A DNA stretch of 24,471 nucleotides from Promethearchaeota archaeon (GTDB lineage Archaea > Asgardarchaeota > Lokiarchaeia > Sigyniarchaeales > SOKP01): contig JBHLMQ010000046.1 of assembly GCA_048938005.1 (NCBI GenBank), forward strand, positions 1 through 24,471, written 5' to 3'. The notes below the pieces were generated by a model. That model saw nothing but the letters and a program-made list of their open reading frames with translations, was not told where the DNA came from and searched no databases. Shown in pieces: positions 808 to 11,695 of this stretch. Made by a program: the position numbers and the translations under genes. Positions within the stretch are counted from its first letter, which is position 1. The number at the start of each line of letters is the position of its first letter.

Positions 808-3177
808 TCACAATTTTATTGACCGCGCAATAACAGTTCTGAAATTTTCTACGTCATTAACTAGTTTATCCGCATCTTCATCGGAGATTTTATCATCTTT
901 TCCATATTTATTTAATTGTGTAAGCCAGAATTCAATTCTACCGAGAATTGCCTCTTTATCTCCTATAACTTTTCTCAATCGTACAAATGTATCGTGTAAT
1001 TTATTTCTTATATTTTGAGCTTTCCATCTTAACATACAATAATCGGAGATTTCCGCTAAATTCTGAGTAATCGCCATTACATCAATTGTTTTCTCACGCT
1101 CTTCCGATTTAATCTTCCGAATGATATTGATCTCTTCAAATAATAATTCTATAATCTTTGCAAGGAAACCTGTTAATTGTCCACTATGCCCACACCACAC
1201 TCTTACTTCCAAAGATTGATTTGCTTCAGATACATAAATTCTACTAATTATTCTCCCACCAGTGACTTTTGCCTCTGAACAATGCCAACTTTCTGCTTCA
1301 TATTTTCCTTTAGGATCATTTCCTTCGTGAGAAGTTACTGTACTTACTTCAAAACGTTTTAATGTCCTAACTGCTGCCCTAAAAGCTAACCTTGGATCCA
1401 AATCTGCTATTAAAAATGCTCGTGCATCATTTGGCATGTCTTGTATAGATATTTGGACATCTTCAATTGTCGATAAACATGAGACAACCAAGGGACATTT
1501 GATTTGAATATCTTTTTTCTTTATATGTTTTGTATATTTGGTTCCGTCAGCAGTTTTATAGATTACATCACCACCAATGGAAGAAGTACCACATTCTTTC
1601 GGCTCTAAATAAAAGTCAACACCCCTTGAATTTTTAGCTTCGATAACAGGAATATTAATTAAAGATTGTTTAACTTTGTAGCTAGATGGAACATCTAAAA
1701 TTACTTTTACTGAATTTATTGCCATTTTACTCTGATTGCGAACTGCCACTTTATAGTGTAATTGCCCCCCAATAAAATCATAATCACGAACAACCTCAAT
1801 TTTACCTTCATCTATGGGTTCTATATCTTTTGGTTTCTCACGAGATTTTGTTTCCACTGGTACGCTATATGCTGTAAAGGATCTTTTAGACATATCAATA
1901 TATCCATCAATATCTCCTCTGCTAATTATTATGGCTAAATTCTCTTCAATACTTGATTCTGTTACTCCTAATCTATTCGAAAGTTCTCTTAATGGCATTG
2001 TTCTATAAGCCCTTGCTATTTCTTTTATTTTCTTTTCAAGATATTTATTAGTCATAAATTCTCTTCTTTGAGTAAACAAACCTTTAATTTCGCCAGTTTT
2101 AATTAATTCATGAAGACTTTTCCTTGCTAATTCTACAGCAATTTTTAATTTTGAAGAAAGCTTTGAAAGTTCAAAAAGCCCCATTTCTTTTGAATAGCTT
2201 TTTATCTCGTTATAAATTTGATCTGTTGTGATAATTTCATTTCCACGATCTGCGAAAAAGCCGTTTACGGCTTTTGCTCTCATTAAATTAACACAAAAGG
2301 ATTTAATAAGTTCTTTTGGAATATTAAAATTATTGGCAAGATCTTTAAGGGAAGTCCTGCCTTTAGTCTTGATTTCTTTTATTAAATTATCCATTATATA
2401 CTGCTGGGTATAATAAATCTTTTTATCTAATGAAAATGAACCTTTTATTTGAAACTGATTAATTAATTTGTAAATCACCTTCGTAGCAATCTCAGAACTC
2501 ATATCGAGCATAACTCCTAAATCTGCCACATTAATTATTCCTTCATCTTGGAATTTTGATAATATTTTTTCACGCATTTCAGAAGATATATAATAAAACA
2601 TCTGATTCTTTTGATCAATAATTCCATAGATTCGTTCTTCTTCCATATATTTGTTGATAAATTTAATCATTTGTTCTGCAGAAATATTGAAGGAATTCAT
2701 AATAGTTGAAAAGTTAGTAAGTGGAGCTCTTTTTAATAAATCCAAAAAACATTTAGGACAAACTTCCCTCCCTATTATGTGTCTTAATTTCTTACTACAT
2801 AAGAGAAGCCTATTTCCTTTAATAAGATTATATCTTAATGCCTCTCTTGCAAGCTTTTCCTTTGATGGAAAAAACAATCCAGGGGTTTTTAAATACGAGT
2901 TCCATGCTTCTGGACATTTAGGATTTGTACACTCCAAATAATATTGCCCAGATGATAACCTTTCTAATCTTAGTAAATGTTTACAAACAGGGCATTCACT
3001 ATTTTCGACAACTGTACATTTATAATTCCTTTCTATAGCTTTTACTTTTGAATAAAAAAGATTATGTCTTCTACACTCATGTGTTTCTGTTGTTGCTATA
3101 TGATTAATACAGAAACTGGATTTACATCTTTCACACGTAAAATCGATTTTTTGGCTTTCACAGAATAAACATTTCAT
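808..3177 (-). CDS. Multidomain protein: AN1-like Zn finger, Zn ribbon, five tandem winged-helix (PCI/DDRGK/UFL1-like) repeats, Ig-like/platform appendage-like C-terminus
   Basis: 789-aa ORF. C-x2-C-x8-C-x2-C-x4-C-x2-H-x6-H-x-C at the N-terminus. About 60-aa repeats ending in (I/V)xGxx(D/S/A/T). The last repeat matches the PCI pattern (YRTMPLRELSNRLGV...IEENLAIIISRGDIDGYID). A beta-rich then alpha/beta C-terminal region follows. Confidence 0.75.
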   Translation of the reverse strand: MKCLFCESQKIDFTCERCKSSFCINHIATTETHECRRHNLFYSKVKAIERNYKCTVVENSECPVCKHLLRLERLSSGQYYLECTNPKCPEAWNSYLKTPGLFFPSKEKLAREALRYNLIKGNRLLLCSKKLRHIIGREVCPKCFLDLLKRAPLTNFSTIMNSFNISAEQMIKFINKYMEEERIYGIIDQKNQMFYYISSEMREKILSKFQDEGIINVADLGVMLDMSSEIATKVIYKLINQFQIKGSFSLDKKIYYTQQYIMDNLIKEIKTKGRTSLKDLANNFNIPKELIKSFCVNLMRAKAVNGFFADRGNEIITTDQIYNEIKSYSKEMGLFELSKLSSKLKIAVELARKSLHELIKTGEIKGLFTQRREFMTNKYLEKKIKEIARAYRTMPLRELSNRLGVTESSIEENLAIIISRGDIDGYIDMSKRSFTAYSVPVETKSREKPKDIEPIDEGKIEVVRDYDFIGGQLHYKVAVRNQSKMAINSVKVILDVPSSYKVKQSLINIPVIEAKNSRGVDFYLEPKECGTSSIGGDVIYKTADGTKYTKHIKKKDIQIKCPLVVSCLSTIEDVQISIQDMPNDARAFLIADLDPRLAFRAAVRTLKRFEVSTVTSHEGNDPKGKYEAESWHCSEAKVTGGRIISRIYVSEANQSLEVRVWCGHSGQLTGFLAKIIELLFEEINIIRKIKSEEREKTIDVMAITQNLAEISDYCMLRWKAQNIRNKLHDTFVRLRKVIGDKEAILGRIEFWLTQLNKYGKDDKISDEDADKLVNDVENFRTVIARSIKL

Positions 3178-4180: not shown

Positions 4181-5452
4181 TCAACTCTTTTGATTATTTC
4201 TATCTTCTGTTAAGCAGAATTTACTTGAACCATAAAATAATATAAATAAAAACACAGTACTCGCGAAATTAAAGGGAAACCAATTTTGGATAATAAACCA
4301 AATTCCAATGAATCCCAAATCGAAAAAACTAAAAAAGAAAAAGCTGGGTTTTACATAATTTTTCGTTATTTCGGATTTTCTAGGTAAATAAAATATCAAT
4401 ACTATTAAAATTGGTGTTAATGCTAAAAGATGATGAGTCCAAGAGTCATAATAAGCAATTAACATAATCAAAATACCAAATAAATAAGCAAAAATAATAC
4501 TTTGATTATTAGTCTTTCGGAAAATATACATAAGAAATCCTATTCCCCCAATAATGAATAAAATCAGGAGAAATATTAATAATGGATTATAGGAGATATT
4601 ATAAAAAATACAAAAATTAATTATTATCTTAGTTAGACTAAATGAGTGATTTAAAATAATTGGCTCCTCACCAGTAAAATTAGTTGCTAAAAACCCTTCC
4701 CATAATTTTGGATATAGAAGAAATAAAAAAAGATTTAACGATAAAGGTAGAATTACGCCTATTATTCTAATTAAACTTCTTAAAATATCAAATTTAAACC
4801 TTCCTTGTTCATTATTGAATTTTAAAATTAACAAGAAAGGAATCATAAAAATAGCAATTGGTTTTATTATTACGCTACATCCTAAAATAATGCTTGCCAA
4901 TAAATCCCATTTAAGACCATCACGTGTTAAAAACAGGAAAAGTGATAATAAAATTAGTAGAGTGATGTATAAATTAATTTGACCTAAAATGTAGTTGAAT
5001 AGGTTTGGTAAGCTCATTAAAAATAAACTAATATATAAGATTATTCTTTTATCCTCTCTTTCGTGATCGTCTCTTCTAATATGAAGAATTATTTTATATA
5101 GAAGAATGCAGATTAAAATGTTTAATATTAAATTAATGAAATTAAATAGTATAAAACCTAAAATGAAACCTACCAAGTAAAAAGGTACAAAAAAAATAGC
5201 TGAAATTGGAAAATATCTAAATGGCCATAAATAATTAGCCCTATTATAAAGATCATTGATATTATGAATAAAAACTTCACCTACCTTATAATAAACCAAA
5301 AAATCATTTTGGTCTCTAAAGAATATTAATGTTAGAATCATTGATAATATAAAGTAAAATCCATGAATTATTATAGCAAATCGAAAAACCTTATGTTCCC
5401 ACAGCGCCCCAAATCTGCTTTTTATTTTTACTAAATAAGTTGTCAAATTCAT
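4181..5452 (-). CDS. Glycosyltransferase family 87 (DUF2029-like, GT-C fold) membrane protein
   Basis: Motifs DFLVYY, LY...PFRYFP, GQIN, IIKP, NHS and SWTHHL in a polytopic membrane protein. Confidence 0.8.
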   Translation of the reverse strand: MNLTTYLVKIKSRFGALWEHKVFRFAIIIHGFYFILSMILTLIFFRDQNDFLVYYKVGEVFIHNINDLYNRANYLWPFRYFPISAIFFVPFYLVGFILGFILFNFINLILNILICILLYKIILHIRRDDHEREDKRIILYISLFLMSLPNLFNYILGQINLYITLLILLSLFLFLTRDGLKWDLLASIILGCSVIIKPIAIFMIPFLLILKFNNEQGRFKFDILRSLIRIIGVILPLSLNLFLFLLYPKLWEGFLATNFTGEEPIILNHSFSLTKIIINFCIFYNISYNPLLIFLLILFIIGGIGFLMYIFRKTNNQSIIFAYLFGILIMLIAYYDSWTHHLLALTPILIVLIFYLPRKSEITKNYVKPSFFFFSFFDLGFIGIWFIIQNWFPFNFASTVFLFILFYGSSKFCLTEDRNNQKS

Positions 5453-5470: not shown

Positions 5471-6223
5471 TTATTTAAGGATATATCTTGTTTTTCTTTT
5501 TTTAACAATATAAAAAATAATACTGAGAGAAATAATAACTGTTAAACCAATTAATGTCGGTATTACATAAAAAGGTAAGAAATCAAGTGAAATATCAACA
5601 ATGACAACATTACTTCCAATATATAGTTTATAAGAATTTAGTAATCCCTGATCATTGTAGATAGCAATTATTTGTATATCTTCTGATGGAAATCCTGGTA
5701 ATATCTCATCTTTACTAATTTCAACATTTAAAGTAGGTAAAACTCGATTATCGACATCGTACCACTCAATTAAAGTTAACCCTCCTACATATTCTCCTAT
5801 AGGAACAGGAAACAAAAAGGGGACGAAAGATGAATATTGTGAGAAATTCAATTTTTGAGAATAATCACTAGGATTTACGAAATAATCTAATTCTGAATCA
5901 TTATCTTTAACTCCCCACATATTTTCACTTGTCCATTCCCAGATACTAAAATTAATATTAATATTTGTTTCATTAAACTTAACGCTATTAATTTTCCATT
6001 TCATTCTTTTTCCCTGACTCAAATTATTAAAAATTCCCGAATCATCCCAATCACTGCCAAAAATAATATCCATATTTAATTTATTACAAACATTACATTT
6101 CCATATCAACTCTTGATCCTTATGAACCCCCATTCTATATTCAACAGCGTTCACAGTTGATATTGTACTGCCGATTAATAAGAAAAAAAGAAAAAAATTG
6201 AAAAAGAATATTTTTTGTTTCAA
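5471..6223 (-). CDS. Secreted surface protein with signal peptide and C-terminal membrane anchor, function unknown
   Basis: TTG start preceded by GAGGT. Hydrophobic N-terminal signal ending VNA, beta-rich ectodomain with several N-x-S/T sequons, C-terminal TM helix followed by basic KKRK tail. Confidence 0.75.
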   Translation of the reverse strand: MKQKIFFFNFFLFFLLIGSTISTVNAVEYRMGVHKDQELIWKCNVCNKLNMDIIFGSDWDDSGIFNNLSQGKRMKWKINSVKFNETNININFSIWEWTSENMWGVKDNDSELDYFVNPSDYSQKLNFSQYSSFVPFLFPVPIGEYVGGLTLIEWYDVDNRVLPTLNVEISKDEILPGFPSEDIQIIAIYNDQGLLNSYKLYIGSNVVIVDISLDFLPFYVIPTLIGLTVIISLSIIFYIVKKRKTRYILK

Positions 6224-6227
6224 TTTC

Positions 6228-7490
6228 TTAAACCTCCTTATTTTTCTTGTTTTGTTTAATTAGGCAATACTTACTTATTCCATAGAATGCTAAAATAAGA
6301 AAGAATGTAGACTCAAAATTATATGGAAATAATGGATATATTAAGTACCATATACCTACAAAAGCAAGATCAAAAAAACTAAAGAAAAATAAACTTAGCT
6401 TGATAGGTTTGGTAATTTTAGAGTGTCGTGGCAAATTAAAAATAATTATAATTAAAATCGGTGTTATATTGAGTAAATGATGATCCCAAGAGTCAAAATA
6501 TGCGAGTAGCATAATGATGAGCCCAAAAATATAACCATAAATGATAGAATTTTTCTCAAATCTTCTAAGTACAAAAATTATAAAACCGATGCCTCCTGCG
6601 ATAACAATTACTCCTATTAAAATAAAAAGTTGATTAAAAGGAATATTGTAGAAATAACAGAAATTTGTAATTAACTTAGAAATACTGAAAGAAAAATTTA
6701 GAGCAATTGGGTTACTCCCTGTAAAATTACTATCTAAAAAACCTTCCCATAAGGGAGGATATAATAAGAAGAGAATAAAGTTCAACAAAGTAGGAGTAAT
6801 AGCACCTATTATCCGGATTGAGCTTCTAAGAAAATCGAATTTAAGCTTCTTTTTCTCCAAATTGAAATTGAATATAATTAAGAATGGAATTAAAAAAATA
6901 GCTGTAGGTTTTATGATAATACTTATTCCTAAAATAAAACTTCCAAGTAATTGCCATTTATATTTATCGTATTTAAGAAAAATATAAAGAGATAACAAAA
7001 TAAAAAATGTAATGTACAAATTAATTTGCCCATAAATATAATTTAACACATGAGGCAACCCCATTAGGTAAATAGATATATACAATATTACTCTTTTATC
7101 ATCTTTTTCATGATCCTCTCTTCTTACTAATACAATTATTTTGTAAAGAATAATGCAAATCAAAACATTGAGGAACATATTAAAAATATTAAAAATTACA
7201 AATGCAACTTCAAAACTCAAGATAGTGAATGGGATAAAAAATAAAGCTGACAATGGAAAATATCTAAAATCCCATAAATAATAAGTTTGATTGTAAAGAT
7301 TTTCAATATCATTGAGAAATATATTTCCTACATTATAAAAAATTATAAAATCATTTTTTTCTCGATAAACCATAAAAAATAAAACTATTGAAAGTACTAA
7401 GAAAAAACTATGAAGGACTAGAGCATATCTAAATATTTTATGCTCCCATAGCTCTTTAATTCTCTTAGTTATTTTGGATTTTAAATTCAT
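6228..7490 (-). CDS. Glycosyltransferase family 87 (GT-C fold), paralog of 4181..5452
   Basis: Motifs DFIIFY, DFRYFP, GQIN, IIKP and SWDHHL; colinear similarity to the other copy along its full length. Confidence 0.8.
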   Translation of the reverse strand: MNLKSKITKRIKELWEHKIFRYALVLHSFFLVLSIVLFFMVYREKNDFIIFYNVGNIFLNDIENLYNQTYYLWDFRYFPLSALFFIPFTILSFEVAFVIFNIFNMFLNVLICIILYKIIVLVRREDHEKDDKRVILYISIYLMGLPHVLNYIYGQINLYITFFILLSLYIFLKYDKYKWQLLGSFILGISIIIKPTAIFLIPFLIIFNFNLEKKKLKFDFLRSSIRIIGAITPTLLNFILFLLYPPLWEGFLDSNFTGSNPIALNFSFSISKLITNFCYFYNIPFNQLFILIGVIVIAGGIGFIIFVLRRFEKNSIIYGYIFGLIIMLLAYFDSWDHHLLNITPILIIIIFNLPRHSKITKPIKLSLFFFSFFDLAFVGIWYLIYPLFPYNFESTFFLILAFYGISKYCLIKQNKKNKEV

Positions 7491-9021: not shown

Positions 9022-10116
9022 TCATTTTTTTCTTTTTATTAAGAATTCTTTTTGAAAAAATCCTGACTTTATAATGTTCTCTTTTTCTTCATTTAAATGC
9101 GTAAAGATTTGAAAGGGATAAATAATTTGGCTTTTATCCTGATAATCTAAAATTCTATTTCTTGTTAAATATATTGAATATTTTGAGACATCACAGCCAA
9201 TCCACCTACGTTTTAATTTCTCAGCAGAAAGAATAGTTGTACCAGAACCGCAGAAAAAATCAGCAATTAAATCACCTTCATTCGATCCAAGTTTGATTAT
9301 TCTTTCAAGCAAATCATGGTGTTTTTGAGTAGGAAATCCTGTCCATTCCTTTGAAGCTGGTTGTAAACAAGGAATCTTCCATACATCATCTAACTTTTTA
9401 TCTTTAACAATTCGATATCTTACATGTCCATTCTCATCTTTTACATTCTTTAATACCCCATTCACCATTTCTCTTCTTAGCTGTTTTATCGGCTTTTTAC
9501 GAGCTATCCTTAACTCGTTAAATGTATAATCTTTTGTCTTGGAATATACTAAGATATCATCATGGGCTCTCGGTAAATTCTTTTTCCCTGCAGAGAATTT
9601 ATTAAAATAATACCATACAATATTATTTACAAATCTACTTTGTCCAAACACCTCATCTAAAATAAGTTGGATATAATGGCTAGCATGCCAATCTAAATGA
9701 ATAAATAATAATCCCCTCTTTGAGAGTAATCTTCTAAATAAGACTATCCGTTCATAAAGCATTTGTAAATAAGAATCTAAATCATTATTCCAGTGATCAA
9801 GATATGCAATAGAATCATATAGTTCGTTATCTTGCTCTATTTTGATTTGATAATTAGTTCCAGAGAAGAATGGGGGATCAATGTAAATTAAATCTATTTT
9901 TTCTTTAAAATTGTTTAATAAAAAATATAAAATTTCTAAGTTATCTCCCCAAAATAGCTTATTCGCCCAAAATTTAGATTTATCGATTTCAATTAATTTT
10001 TCATTATTATTAAACGAATAACTTTCAAAAGCTTTAAAAAAATTAAGAGTATATTTTTTTAGGTCTTCTGATTTATATACCTTATCTATTTTATTGTCCC
10101 AAATTAATTTAGGCAT
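9022..10116 (-). CDS. Site-specific DNA methyltransferase (N6-adenine/N4-cytosine, beta class, Mod-like)
   Basis: GDNL, IYIDPPF (motif IV) precedes DVW...FPTQK and DFFCGSGTT (motif I), which is the beta-class motif order. Confidence 0.92.
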   Translation of the reverse strand: MPKLIWDNKIDKVYKSEDLKKYTLNFFKAFESYSFNNNEKLIEIDKSKFWANKLFWGDNLEILYFLLNNFKEKIDLIYIDPPFFSGTNYQIKIEQDNELYDSIAYLDHWNNDLDSYLQMLYERIVLFRRLLSKRGLLFIHLDWHASHYIQLILDEVFGQSRFVNNIVWYYFNKFSAGKKNLPRAHDDILVYSKTKDYTFNELRIARKKPIKQLRREMVNGVLKNVKDENGHVRYRIVKDKKLDDVWKIPCLQPASKEWTGFPTQKHHDLLERIIKLGSNEGDLIADFFCGSGTTILSAEKLKRRWIGCDVSKYSIYLTRNRILDYQDKSQIIYPFQIFTHLNEEKENIIKSGFFQKEFLIKRKK

Positions 10117-10141: not shown

Positions 10142-10807
10142 CTAAATTTCTTTTTTTTCTAATAGATCATCAAACTCTCTATCTGATAAAAATCCTTTAT
10201 GGATCATAATATCTTTGATATTTTCAATGAGTTGGGGCGCTCCTTTAGCCTCTCCAATTGTTTGCTTAAGTAAAGTCACTTTTTCATTAAGTTCTTTGAC
10301 TTCTTTTAATTTAGCATCTCTTTCTTCTTTAATGGTTTCTACTTCTACATATTTATCTGAAACTGCTTTTTGTAAATCACTTTTAAGGCTCTCGATTTCA
10401 TTTATTTTCTGCTGTAAATCTGCTTTAATATCTTCCTTCTCTTTTAATTCATTTTCTACTTCTGATATCTTAGAACTAGATTCATTAAGCTTGGATTCTA
10501 AGGCTTGTTTTGCCGATTTTAGTTTATTAATTTCAGCCTCAGCATAAAGTTTTTCTTCTTTCACGCGTTCAAAATTCTTTTTTAAAGAATTTATACTTTC
10601 CTCCAAATTTTCATCCTTTTTTTTCGTTTCAGAGAGAGTTTCTTTGGTTGTTTTTAAGTCGCCTGAAGATTTTTCTAAATCTTTTATTTTTTGGGCTAAT
10701 TGTTTTTCTAGACTATTAATCTTGGATCTAAGGTCTAACAACACTTTTCCTTCAATGGATAATTTTTTATCCGGGCGTGCTTCGGCTTTTGCCCAGTCAA
10801 TACTCAA
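10142..10807 (-). CDS. Coiled-coil protein with conserved N-terminal head and C-terminal KGFLSDxEF tail
   Basis: TTG start with GGTGA upstream, long K/E/L heptad region, paralogous to the adjacent gene. Confidence 0.8.
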   Translation of the reverse strand: MSIDWAKAEARPDKKLSIEGKVLLDLRSKINSLEKQLAQKIKDLEKSSGDLKTTKETLSETKKKDENLEESINSLKKNFERVKEEKLYAEAEINKLKSAKQALESKLNESSSKISEVENELKEKEDIKADLQQKINEIESLKSDLQKAVSDKYVEVETIKEERDAKLKEVKELNEKVTLLKQTIGEAKGAPQLIENIKDIMIHKGFLSDREFDDLLEKKEI

Positions 10808-10945: not shown

Positions 10946-11695
10946 TTATTCTTCTAATTCGTTTAACATCTGCTCGAATTCTTTATCAGATAAAAATCCT
11001 TTAATTTCTATTAACTTTTTTATTTCTTCTATTATTTTGGATGCAATTATAGCGATTGACATTTGAGCTTTAAAAGAGTTAAATTTTTCAATTTGCTCCT
11101 TCGTTTTATTTTTCTCCACGTTCAACTTTTCCTTTAGAAAATCGACCTCTTTTTGTCTATGATTTATTCTATCTTTAAGATCTTGGATTTCTTTTTCTTT
11201 GTTTAAAAGTTCCTTTGCTTTGTTTAATATCTCCTCCCCTTTGTTTTGAATTTCTTTATCTCTTATTAAAATTTTCTTTTCCATTTCAGCAAAATTTTCT
11301 GCGGTGTTTTTCAATTGATTTTCAAGGATAGTAATTTTAGCTATAGCTTCAGTGAGATTTATTTCTAATTTCGATTTATCAGTTTTCAATTTAGCTACTT
11401 CTATATCTACTTGTAATTTTTCTTCTTTAACCTCATCTAGAGATTTTCTTGCTATAGATTTTCTTTCCGTAAGTTCCATCAAACTTCTTTCACGACCTGC
11501 CAATTTCTCTTTTATTAAGTTTGCTTCATTATTTACTTTATTCAGAATTTCTTGATTCTTTGTTAATTGCTGTTCTAAGTCTTCTATTTTAGATCTAAAT
11601 TCCAATAAGACTTTTCCTTCGATAGATATCTTCTTATTAGGTTTTTCTTCTAGCTTTATCCAATCAAGACTAATCTTTTCCCACCTTTGTATCAT
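10946..11695 (-). CDS. Coiled-coil protein, tandem paralog of 10142..10807
   Basis: Shares DW.K.E..P.KK.SIEGKVLL..RSKI, VKEEKL and KGFLSD.EF with its neighbour. The start may be ATT at 11674. Confidence 0.8.
   Translation of the reverse strand: MIQRWEKISLDWIKLEEKPNKKISIEGKVLLEFRSKIEDLEQQLTKNQEILNKVNNEANLIKEKLAGRERSLMELTERKSIARKSLDEVKEEKLQVDIEVAKLKTDKSKLEINLTEAIAKITILENQLKNTAENFAEMEKKILIRDKEIQNKGEEILNKAKELLNKEKEIQDLKDRINHRQKEVDFLKEKLNVEKNKTKEQIEKFNSFKAQMSIAIIASKIIEEIKKLIEIKGFLSDKEFEQMLNELEE

Follow-up and report, generated by a model that had tools for sequence, protein, structure and literature searches.

Architecture and conservation of the gene

We analysed a 24,471-nucleotide stretch of DNA from a Promethearchaeota archaeon (contig JBHLMQ010000046.1 of assembly GCA_048938005.1), hereafter the window, and within it one reverse-strand gene whose product joins a predicted zinc module, an array of winged helices (WH1 to WH5) homologous to the DDRGK1 and UFL1 proteins of the UFM1 ligase, an appendage of the kind found in coat adaptors as judged from the model, and a helical end that points to Vps28. 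The list of open reading frames and the translation give a single frame at 808..3177 on the minus strand, with an ATG start and 789 codons plus a stop (789 residues); the G+C content of the whole window is 25-34%. The structure was modelled in two overlapping parts, residues 1-450 (from an alignment of 33 relatives) and residues 441-789 (57 sequences), with a mean predicted local distance difference test score (pLDDT) of 90.7 and 93.2, respectively. The features are as follows, with the evidence for each in brackets.

808..3177, minus strand: complete coding sequence (open reading frame list, translation, full-length relatives, single copy in its own genome)
3058..3177, minus strand: AN1-like finger, residues 1-40, with eight candidate ligands from C3 to H38 and room for two Zn (ligand conservation, hidden Markov model (HMM) match below cut-off)
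2758..3057, minus strand: further Cys sites and one helix, residues 41-140 (conservation, weak ribbon matches)
1870..2757, minus strand: five tandem winged helices, residues 141-436 (Pfam, profile against PDB, Foldseek, VIA-align)
1801..1869, minus strand: charged linker, residues 437-459, probably disordered, containing SREKPKDIEPIDEG (position, low pLDDT)
1498..1800, minus strand: Ig-like beta sandwich, residues 460-560, first appendage subdomain (model, weak Pfam GAE, VIA-align)
1186..1497, minus strand: alpha/beta platform, residues 561-664, second appendage subdomain (VIA-align, Foldseek)
811..1185, minus strand: 51-residue helix leading into a Vps28 C-terminal-like four-helix bundle (695-787), residues 665-789 (Pfam, profile, VIA-align)

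This is a genuine, conserved archaeal gene. A word-index search returned 315 proteins at E <= 0.001, and the 120 listed among these, 716-820 residues long and 74-100% identical, lie on many separate contigs; their sources are mostly labelled Promethearchaeota or Lokiarchaeota, with some metagenome-assembled genomes under other Asgard labels. NCBI names the listed orthologues 'PCI domain-containing protein', and the JGI names among orthologues include ArsR, Lrp and ribosomal protein S25. Searched exhaustively, the 50% representatives yielded 393 proteins at E <= 0.001, of which 119 passed 1e-10 and 26 passed 1e-30, with full-length relatives reaching down to 40-46% identity (P0122-P0124) and many proteins of differing length resembling residues ~450-700 alone. 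We then surveyed 301 genomes of the phylum at a match threshold of E <= 1e-5, and 114 held a match. Full-length matches occur in 63 of the 68 genomes of the gene's own family (56-87% identity among the matches listed) and in six of the seven genomes of a sister family in the same order (43-45%), and in none of the 301 outside these two families; the five family genomes with no match are 81-99% complete. Two families of the same class match the N-terminal half alone, at ~25% identity and in frames of 726-736 residues, and the rest of the phylum matches single modules, nothing more.

The gene has one copy in its own genome (3.72 Mb, 101 contigs, 95% complete), and the reading frame is unbroken in the full-length relatives, which sit on separate contigs. 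Because a full-length single-copy gene recurs in 63 of 68 family genomes and six of seven sister-family genomes, an assembly chimera is excluded. The first-pass annotation, made from the sequence alone, had named a chimera, or a fusion absent from relatives, as what would overturn its reading; full-length relatives exist, and neither is the case. The notion of a chimera or dead gene is refuted by near full-length orthologues, 74-100% identical and with the frame intact on separate contigs, and by the confidence of both models. The peak 19-residue hydropathy mean of the protein is 1.37, against 3.2 in an adjacent membrane protein, so that no membrane span is expected and the product should be a scaffold protein lacking a membrane segment.

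The winged-helix array is colinear with DDRGK1 and UFL1

Five consecutive winged helices occupy residues 141-196, 199-257, 258-317, 318-376 and 377-436 of the model, each 56-60 residues long, in agreement with the five repeats of about 60 residues noted at first pass. Three Pfam families exceed their cut-offs here: PCI (69.8 bits against a cut-off of 22; E 2.3e-19, the top family), again in five stretches, E3_UFM1_ligase (70.3 against 23.2 bits, residues 232-435) and DDRGK (49.2 against 27.8 bits, residues 142-220), the latter two also being matched by the orthologues P0122-P0124. Searching the family profile against PDB revealed the human DDRGK1-UFL1 chimera 8b9x as one colinear stretch (E 4e-25). 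UFL1 alone (E 1.8e-12) aligned its residues 27-255 with profile positions 220-439, and DDRGK1 alone (E about 1e-8, or 1.1e-8) its residues 217-297 with positions 136-217. Because these two alignments adjoin, DDRGK1 ends where UFL1 starts, and it does so within WH2: profile position 220 corresponds to about residue 226, between helices 2 and 3 of that domain, with WH1 and the first half of WH2 aligning with DDRGK1 and the second half of WH2 through WH5 with UFL1. In the profile search against PDB, nothing matched UFL1 residues 1-26, the C-terminal part of UFL1 or DDRGK1 before residue 217. The N-terminal helix of UFL1 (residues 1-26) reportedly binds UFC1.

The structural searches led to the same pair. 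Foldseek ranked 8b9x first (1.8e-13, TM 0.70, root-mean-square deviation (rmsd) 3.8 over 245 columns), followed by the UFL1 chains of 60S-bound structures (8qfc_B, 1e-11; 8ohd_A, 5e-11) and, as the next structural match, the RNA-binding winged-helix array of SelB (1lva, 7.4e-6). VIA-align superposed the array on 8b9x with Z 15.3 and rmsd 4.0 over 243 of 255 residues, and its second row (Z 10.8) covers a single winged helix. Single domains resemble a wider set of proteins: WH5 superposes on CSN subunits (Z 10.8 and 10.7, rmsd 0.9-1.3), the family profile finds Rpn6 and CSN4 at 1e-3 to 2e-5, weak eS25-like matches fall within WH4, and many bacterial and archaeal repressors align with single winged helices at Z 8-10 (LrpA, E 0.023). 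The model holds no helical solenoid ahead of a winged helix; zinc fingers lead straight into five back-to-back winged helices.

In eukaryotes, the two chains of UFL1-DDRGK1 jointly complete one composite winged helix; in the archaeal chain this domain is whole. Since profile colinearity and structural superposition agree, we conclude that the array is homologous to, and colinear with, DDRGK1 followed by UFL1, and that it is the unsplit counterpart of the pair. The PCI/UFL1-DDRGK-like array proposed at first pass stands, with three families over cut-off and a superposition on 8b9x. The unsplit layout is possibly new: we found no such statement in published text, and figures or supplements may hold it.

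A two-part appendage precedes a Vps28-like helical end

The charged linker noted at first pass is SREKPKDIEPIDEG, residues 445-458, and lies within the sole low-confidence parts of both models (residues 440-450 in the N-terminal model; residues 1-20 of the C-terminal one). Beyond it, the C-terminal model contains the beta-sandwich, alpha/beta and helical segments that had been recognised from the sequence, at residues 460-559, 564-662 and 665-786.

For this half of the protein, the top 17 Foldseek rows were all chains of COPI, AP2 and BBS9 (E 2e-10 to 2e-6), including 9qpq_H, the beta2 ear 1e42, the alpha ear 1w80, the gamma-COP ear 1pzd and BBS9, and the ear chains aligned over both subdomains, about 230-250 columns. 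Two-subdomain alignments by VIA-align matched beta2 3h1z (Z 13.1), alpha 1w80 (Z 12.8) and gamma-COP (Z 11.0), each over ~200 residues, as well as BBS9 (Z 12.8 over 236 residues, model 19-323), which extends into the helical part. The platform alone superposed on the AP-4 beta ear 2mj7 with Z 13.8 and rmsd 2.7 over 118 residues, and the Ig subdomain on the GGA2 GAE domain (Z 10.8) and the gamma2 ear (Z 10.2). The whole-protein Pfam scan contained no adaptin or COPI appendage family at E <= 10, and its weak hits GAE_BBS1 (E 0.034) and PTHB1_GAE (E 0.16) were both below cut-off. As modelled, residues 460-664 match a two-part adaptin-type appendage, in line with the coat-adaptor-like appendage suggested earlier, its Ig and platform parts matching AP2, COPI and BBS9.

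The C-terminal helices of the model, to which the first-pass annotation gave no name, comprise one of 51 residues and three more (665-786). Pfam VPS28 aligned residues 690-779 with positions 88-180 of its 188 at 25.3 bits against a cut-off of 24.5 (28.2 bits for this gene in the genome scan), the family profile matched the C-terminal domain of Xenopus Vps28 (2j9w, E 0.0076), and the region's best VIA-align match was the same domain of yeast Vps28 (2j9u, Z 13.1, rmsd 2.1, 93 of 94 residues). By these three methods, and with a thin margin, the helical end points to a Vps28 C-terminal-like bundle; a precomputed PF03997 label is attached to 33 of the 120 listed orthologues.

Elsewhere in the genome (contig C97:99688-100269; L048:11671-12351, minus strand) lies a true member of the family NF045535, annotated 'putative selenocysteine system protein' (230 bits), which adjoins a 457-residue gene read as a selenocysteine synthase and is ~6.6 kb away from the Vps28 gene. 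No BLASTP hit joins residues 593-789 to this protein, and its likeness to the studied protein is at profile level alone. Judged by sequence, the platform-plus-bundle module may also occur as a stand-alone protein.

The N-terminus is AN1-like and rich in candidate zinc ligands

The Cys/His-rich N-terminus seen at first pass is borne out, 14 of the 21 cysteines falling in residues 3-143. The alignment of relatives conserves 16 candidate ligands (C3, C6, C15, C18, C23, H26, C35, H38, C54, C62, C65, C83, C88, C127, C140 and C143), which would suffice for four predicted zinc sites. Within residues 41-140 and just beyond, the pattern is C54, then a ribbon of C62-x2-C65 ... C83-x4-C88, then C127 and C140-x2-C143. 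H33 is not conserved, being Y or W in most relatives, and C35 and H38 are kept.

AN1 fingers have the ligand pattern C-x2-C-x9-12-C-x1-2-C-x4-C-x2-H-x5-H-x-C. The first six ligands fit it except for one x8 spacer, and H33-x-C35 fits its end, but the final ligand pair is unlike AN1 (C35/H38 conserved, H33 variable). The zf-AN1 HMM matched residues 11-37 at 20.9 bits, below its cut-off of 27.9; in the genome ranking for this family the studied gene came fourth, after three true AN1 genes, and zf-AN1 was missing from the Pfam scan of the whole protein. Two solved chains, 1x4v and 1wys, which we take to be AN1 fingers, matched the N-terminus at E about 2. 'AN1-like' appears a fair label for this ligand pattern, with membership of the AN1 family below threshold; of the AN1-like finger claimed at first pass, the similar ligand pattern stands, and the score and the last ligand pair depart from the family.

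Residues 41-140 gave weak ribbon matches (Zn_ribbon_Top1, E 8; RPC10, E 0.053). The pLDDT is 88-92 for residues 1-40 and about 90 for residues 41-140. With the residues 1-450 model, VIA-align and Foldseek returned no rows for the zinc module, and in the ESM Atlas the best scores for residues 1-145 were 0.76, under the chance-hit level. Matches to p300 TAZ2 (E 0.16-7) were set aside as due to Cys/His composition.

Modules are shuffled among Asgard lineages

Some relatives are built differently. Those at class level, P0138 and P0140 (723-724 residues), have the zinc module and the winged-helix array, with neither appendage nor bundle, and their C-termini consist of more UFL1/DDRGK-like winged helices. 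Two shorter relatives, P0134 and P0136, combine a double zinc ribbon, one PCI-type winged helix and an appendage-helical end. Other Asgard families carry the UFL1/DDRGK-like array by itself (~385 residues) or within proteins of 1127 and 1243 residues. Residues ~204-406 are also resembled by HEAT-repeat proteins of 792-793 residues, in whose Pfam scan no UFL1, DDRGK or PCI family appeared. The modules are shuffled among Asgard lineages, with the window's own combination fixed in a single order; because P0138 and P0140 end in winged helices instead, the ear-plus-bundle fusion looks specific to that order.

The first-pass annotation had regarded the architecture as the best candidate for an undescribed system. 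Published work does not bear this out. Liu et al. 2020 (10.1101/2020.10.19.343400), in the text to Fig. 5a, describe Asgard proteins that fuse Vps28, an adaptin/COPI appendage and UFL1/PCI domains, and predict 'ubiquitin-dependent membrane remodeling'. Makarova et al. 2024 (10.1101/2024.02.06.579148), in the text to Fig. 6B, report proteins with a Vps28 C-terminal domain and an adaptin appendage, often with a longin domain, and helix-turn-helix (HTH) or PCI domains, and propose that such proteins contact ESCRT-II without ESCRT-I, as ESCRT-0 analogues. Eme et al. 2023 note appendage domains in Asgard archaea, Picchianti et al. 2023 hold that UFL1 and DDRGK1 originated there and suggest a UFM1-independent function, and Hatano et al. 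2022 report yeast two-hybrid contacts of Lokiarchaeal ESCRT-I (Vps28 and/or Vps23) with Vps22. The protein belongs to the published class of Asgard-specific ESCRT-related multidomain proteins. A bench experiment on it was not found in the literature, as the first-pass statement that no characterised protein has this architecture had implied.

Presumed partners are encoded elsewhere in the genome

The genome carries an ESCRT cluster on contig C34 (L018:1-2658) with genes for a Vps4-like AAA ATPase (read by eye and cut by the start of the locus), a Vps25-like protein of 301 residues whose N-terminus is prolonged by a long charged stretch and, in divergent orientation, a Vps22-like (EAP30) protein of 237 residues. 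A full Vps28 is encoded separately on contig C97, which also holds a ubiquitin-system cluster (L047:5589-12185) of three ubiquitin-like genes, two ending in Gly, a ThiF-type E1, a UQ_con E2, a JAB/MPN protease and an ArsR-like protein of three winged helices. In a profile search the last resembled a paralogue of the studied protein, but it was rejected as a specific link (BLASTP to that protein, E 0.01; ArsR-like in Pfam). A membrane protein with a Cys-rich C-terminus and no Pfam match lies in the same cluster.

For UFM1 (PF03671) and UFC1 (PF08694), nothing exceeded the Pfam cut-off in this 95% complete genome; the weak hits lie in frames read by eye as aspartate kinase and acyl-CoA synthetase. 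The absence of UFM1 is not established, because Kostlbacher et al. 2026 report divergent Ufm1 homologues in nine Asgard clades. When the last 130 residues were modelled in complex with the Vps22-like protein of this genome, the prediction scored 0.00 (mark 0.32), which speaks neither for nor against binding.

We compared the neighbourhood in five loci, the window and four relatives. Family members share a setting in which two GT87 glycosyltransferases accompany the gene, a DsbD_2-like membrane protein is encoded upstream in the same orientation, and a NikR-like protein follows downstream. Unrelated genes flank it in the sister family: one genome has a histidine kinase and a gene for purine synthesis there, the other an acyl-CoA dehydrogenase and, close by on the opposite strand, a proteasome subunit gene. 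Synteny is limited to the family, and gene neighbourhood reveals no conserved functional linkage.

Several other genes of the window were recorded alongside. Directly downstream, at 312-737 on the minus strand, a small protein combines a ribbon-helix-helix with a NikR C-terminal-like domain, both near cut-off; this gene is kept beside the studied gene within the family, on the opposite strand in one relative locus (L029). At 4181-5452 and 6228-7490, on the minus strand, lie tandem paralogues of GT87-family membrane glycosyltransferases, separated at 5471-6223 by a 250-residue protein with a signal-like N-terminus and a C-terminal anchor; synteny of this block with the studied gene extends to family-level relatives (L029, L030). 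Beside an N6/N4 DNA methylase gene (9022-10116, minus strand; PF01555, 162 bits), no restriction enzyme gene was recognised in the open reading frames scanned. Adjacent paralogous coiled-coil proteins of 221 and 249 residues (10142-10807 and 10946-11695, minus strand) share an N-terminal W-x-K-x-E...KK-x-SIEGKVLL motif and a C-terminal 'KGFLSD-x-EF' motif, and in Pfam they gave generic coiled-coil matches, nothing else.

A putative ESCRT-linked adaptor

Our favoured reading, which we put forward tentatively and at somewhat less than even probability, is that the protein is a soluble, modular, ESCRT-linked adaptor for clients or cargo, an analogue of ESCRT-0 and not a UFM1 ligase. The C-terminal bundle would dock the protein on the ESCRT machinery, as the C-terminal domain of eukaryotic Vps28 does; the appendage may recruit accessory proteins through short motifs; and the winged-helix array, with the zinc fingers, might hold the client, which could be a modified protein or some large particle, the ribosome for example, the flexible linker lying between array and appendage. 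Several observations are consistent with this. Three methods concur on the Vps28-C likeness; the genome encodes the presumed docking partners (Vps22-like, Vps25-like, Vps4-like and full Vps28) and has a cluster of ubiquitin, E1, E2 and JAB genes as well; the shorter relatives P0134 and P0136 echo the succession of zinc ribbon, winged helix, appendage and helical end; the gene is retained full-length and in single copy, with no membrane segment expected and with no UFM1 or UFC1 over the Pfam cut-off; and Makarova et al. 2024 (10.1101/2024.02.06.579148) propose, in the part cited above, an equal role for the class. The prediction of Liu et al. 2020 and the two-hybrid contacts of Hatano et al. 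2022 likewise favour it. The first-pass annotation had inferred a scaffold tied to a proto-coat: its eukaryote-like modules are genuine, but the Vps28-like end points more directly to ESCRT.

Other observations weigh against an ESCRT-linked role. At sequence level the Vps28-C match is marginal, at 25.3 bits for a cut-off of 24.5, and residues 593-789 gave no BLASTP hit to the Vps28 of this genome. Four-helix bundles match broadly (CheA P1, Z 11.8). The stand-alone NF045535 protein shares a profile-level likeness with residues ~594-776 (27.9 bits for the studied protein), and because it adjoins an apparent selenocysteine synthase gene, ESCRT contexts are not the only ones in which the platform-bundle module is seen. 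Taken alone, the Ig subdomain matches generic Ig domains equally well or better (lacto-N-biosidase, Z 13.5; complement MG, ~12), for which reason the appendage call rests on the pair of subdomains. Finally, no ESCRT, ubiquitin or ribosomal gene is adjacent in any of the five loci compared.

The array is the strongest signal in the protein (8b9x, E 4e-25, Z 15.3), and it raises the alternative, rather unlikely in our estimate, of a UFM1-independent forerunner of UFL1-DDRGK1 that docks through the array on the large ribosomal subunit or a translation factor and serves ribosome or nascent-chain quality control, appendage and bundle being mere protein-interaction ends with no ESCRT link. The matches to UFL1 chains of 60S-bound structures (8qfc_B, 8ohd_A), the weak eS25-like matches in WH4, the SelB array as next structural match and the UFM1-independent Asgard function suggested by Picchianti et al. 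2023 all fit this idea, which has to contend with the lack of ribosomal genes nearby and with the limits of the likeness. The coverage is UFL1 27-255 and DDRGK1 217-297; the C-terminal domain of UFL1 and, in DDRGK1, the membrane anchor and long helix find no match, and these are the very parts that place eukaryotic UFL1-DDRGK1 on ribosome and membrane.

AN1 proteins act with p97 and the proteasome, and the protein could on that basis be a quality-control adaptor whose AN1-like finger binds Cdc48 or the proteasome and whose PCI-type winged helices assemble with PCI-like proteins. PCI as the top Pfam family (2.3e-19), the best superpositions of WH5 being on CSN subunits (Z 10.8, 10.7), the Rpn6 and CSN4 profile matches and the AN1-like pattern speak for it; yet the model lacks a helical solenoid before the winged helix, the AN1 match is under cut-off, and a proteasome subunit gene lies near an orthologue in one of five loci, on the opposite strand, which leaves this reading distinctly improbable. 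A DNA-binding regulator or chromatin protein built of HTH and winged-helix repeats, as the ArsR and Lrp family names imply, is very improbable. Single winged helices do match repressors (Z 8-10; LrpA, E 0.023), and JGI names include ArsR, Lrp and S25, but the multi-domain match is solely to the DDRGK1-UFL1 chimera, with Z 15.3 against at most 10.8 for single domains, and we know of no precedent for an appendage and Vps28-C bundle in DNA-binding regulators. Likewise, the segments do not match only generic HTH or CARDB-type Ig domains, the outcome that the first-pass annotation had said would count against it. Such probability as is left falls to some other scaffold role.

Possible origin of the two-chain scaffold

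A further reading, quite unlikely as a whole, is that the protein preserves the unsplit ancestor of the UFM1 E3 scaffold, that DDRGK1 and UFL1 arose by a break inside WH2, and that the forerunner fed a large client to ESCRT. If so, the two human proteins complete one composite domain because the array was broken within WH2; the forerunner of the UFMylation ligase would, before there was any UFM1, have passed a large client (the ribosome, possibly) to membrane machinery of the ESCRT type, foreshadowing the eukaryotic link of ribosome UFMylation with endoplasmic reticulum (ER)-phagy. This gives a concrete, testable account of how the two-chain UFL1-DDRGK1 scaffold originated.

Asgard archaea are the closest known relatives of eukaryotes, and the assembly of eukaryotic sorting and quality-control machines from archaeal parts is debated. 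Here, one chain unites parts of three such machines, the UFM1 ligase scaffold, the coat-adaptor ear and the Vps28 of ESCRT-I. Kept in near-invariable single copy throughout one Lokiarchaeal order, it offers a practical bait for the partners of these modules in an archaeon, and pull-downs are feasible because Lokiarchaea exist in culture.

Comparison with known systems

The closest counterpart of the array is the eukaryotic UFL1-DDRGK1 scaffold (8b9x, 8c0d, 8qfc, 8ohd), which is likewise one rigid unit with the same domain order. It consists of two chains in eukaryotes and of one in the archaeal protein, where, unlike in UFL1-DDRGK1, the array is fused to an appendage and a Vps28-C-like bundle. 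The archaeal protein has no DDRGK1-like membrane anchor and no UFL1 C-terminal domain; linker, appendage and bundle come after WH5. With the PCI proteins of the proteasome lid, CSN and eIF3 it shares the Pfam PCI winged helix. True PCI subunits have a helical-repeat solenoid preceding that domain.

In the C-terminal half, an Ig sandwich followed by a platform is the order found in the AP2 alpha and beta2, AP-4 beta and COPI gamma and beta ears and in BBS9 C-termini, although the orientation of the subdomains differs from that of known ears (rmsd 13-14 A over both). BBS9 ends in GAE, platform and helical parts, and its alignment also runs into the helical region that follows in the archaeal protein. 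Unlike coat adaptors and BBS9, the archaeal protein has no HEAT/ARM trunk and no beta-propeller, but zinc fingers and winged helices instead. The C-terminal four-helix bundle is common to this protein and to Vps28 of ESCRT-I; the N-terminal half of Vps28, the steadiness box that joins Vps23, is missing here, whereas the genome's true Vps28 matches positions 2-175.

Another close system is the published Asgard multidomain class, with which the protein shares the domain set, the lineage and the proposed ESCRT-linked, ESCRT-0-like role. Many published members have a longin domain, and none is seen in the model of the C-terminal half of this protein. To the published description the present analysis adds the multi-zinc, AN1-like N-terminus, the number of winged helices (five), the DDRGK1-then-UFL1 colinearity and the near-universal single copy in one order.

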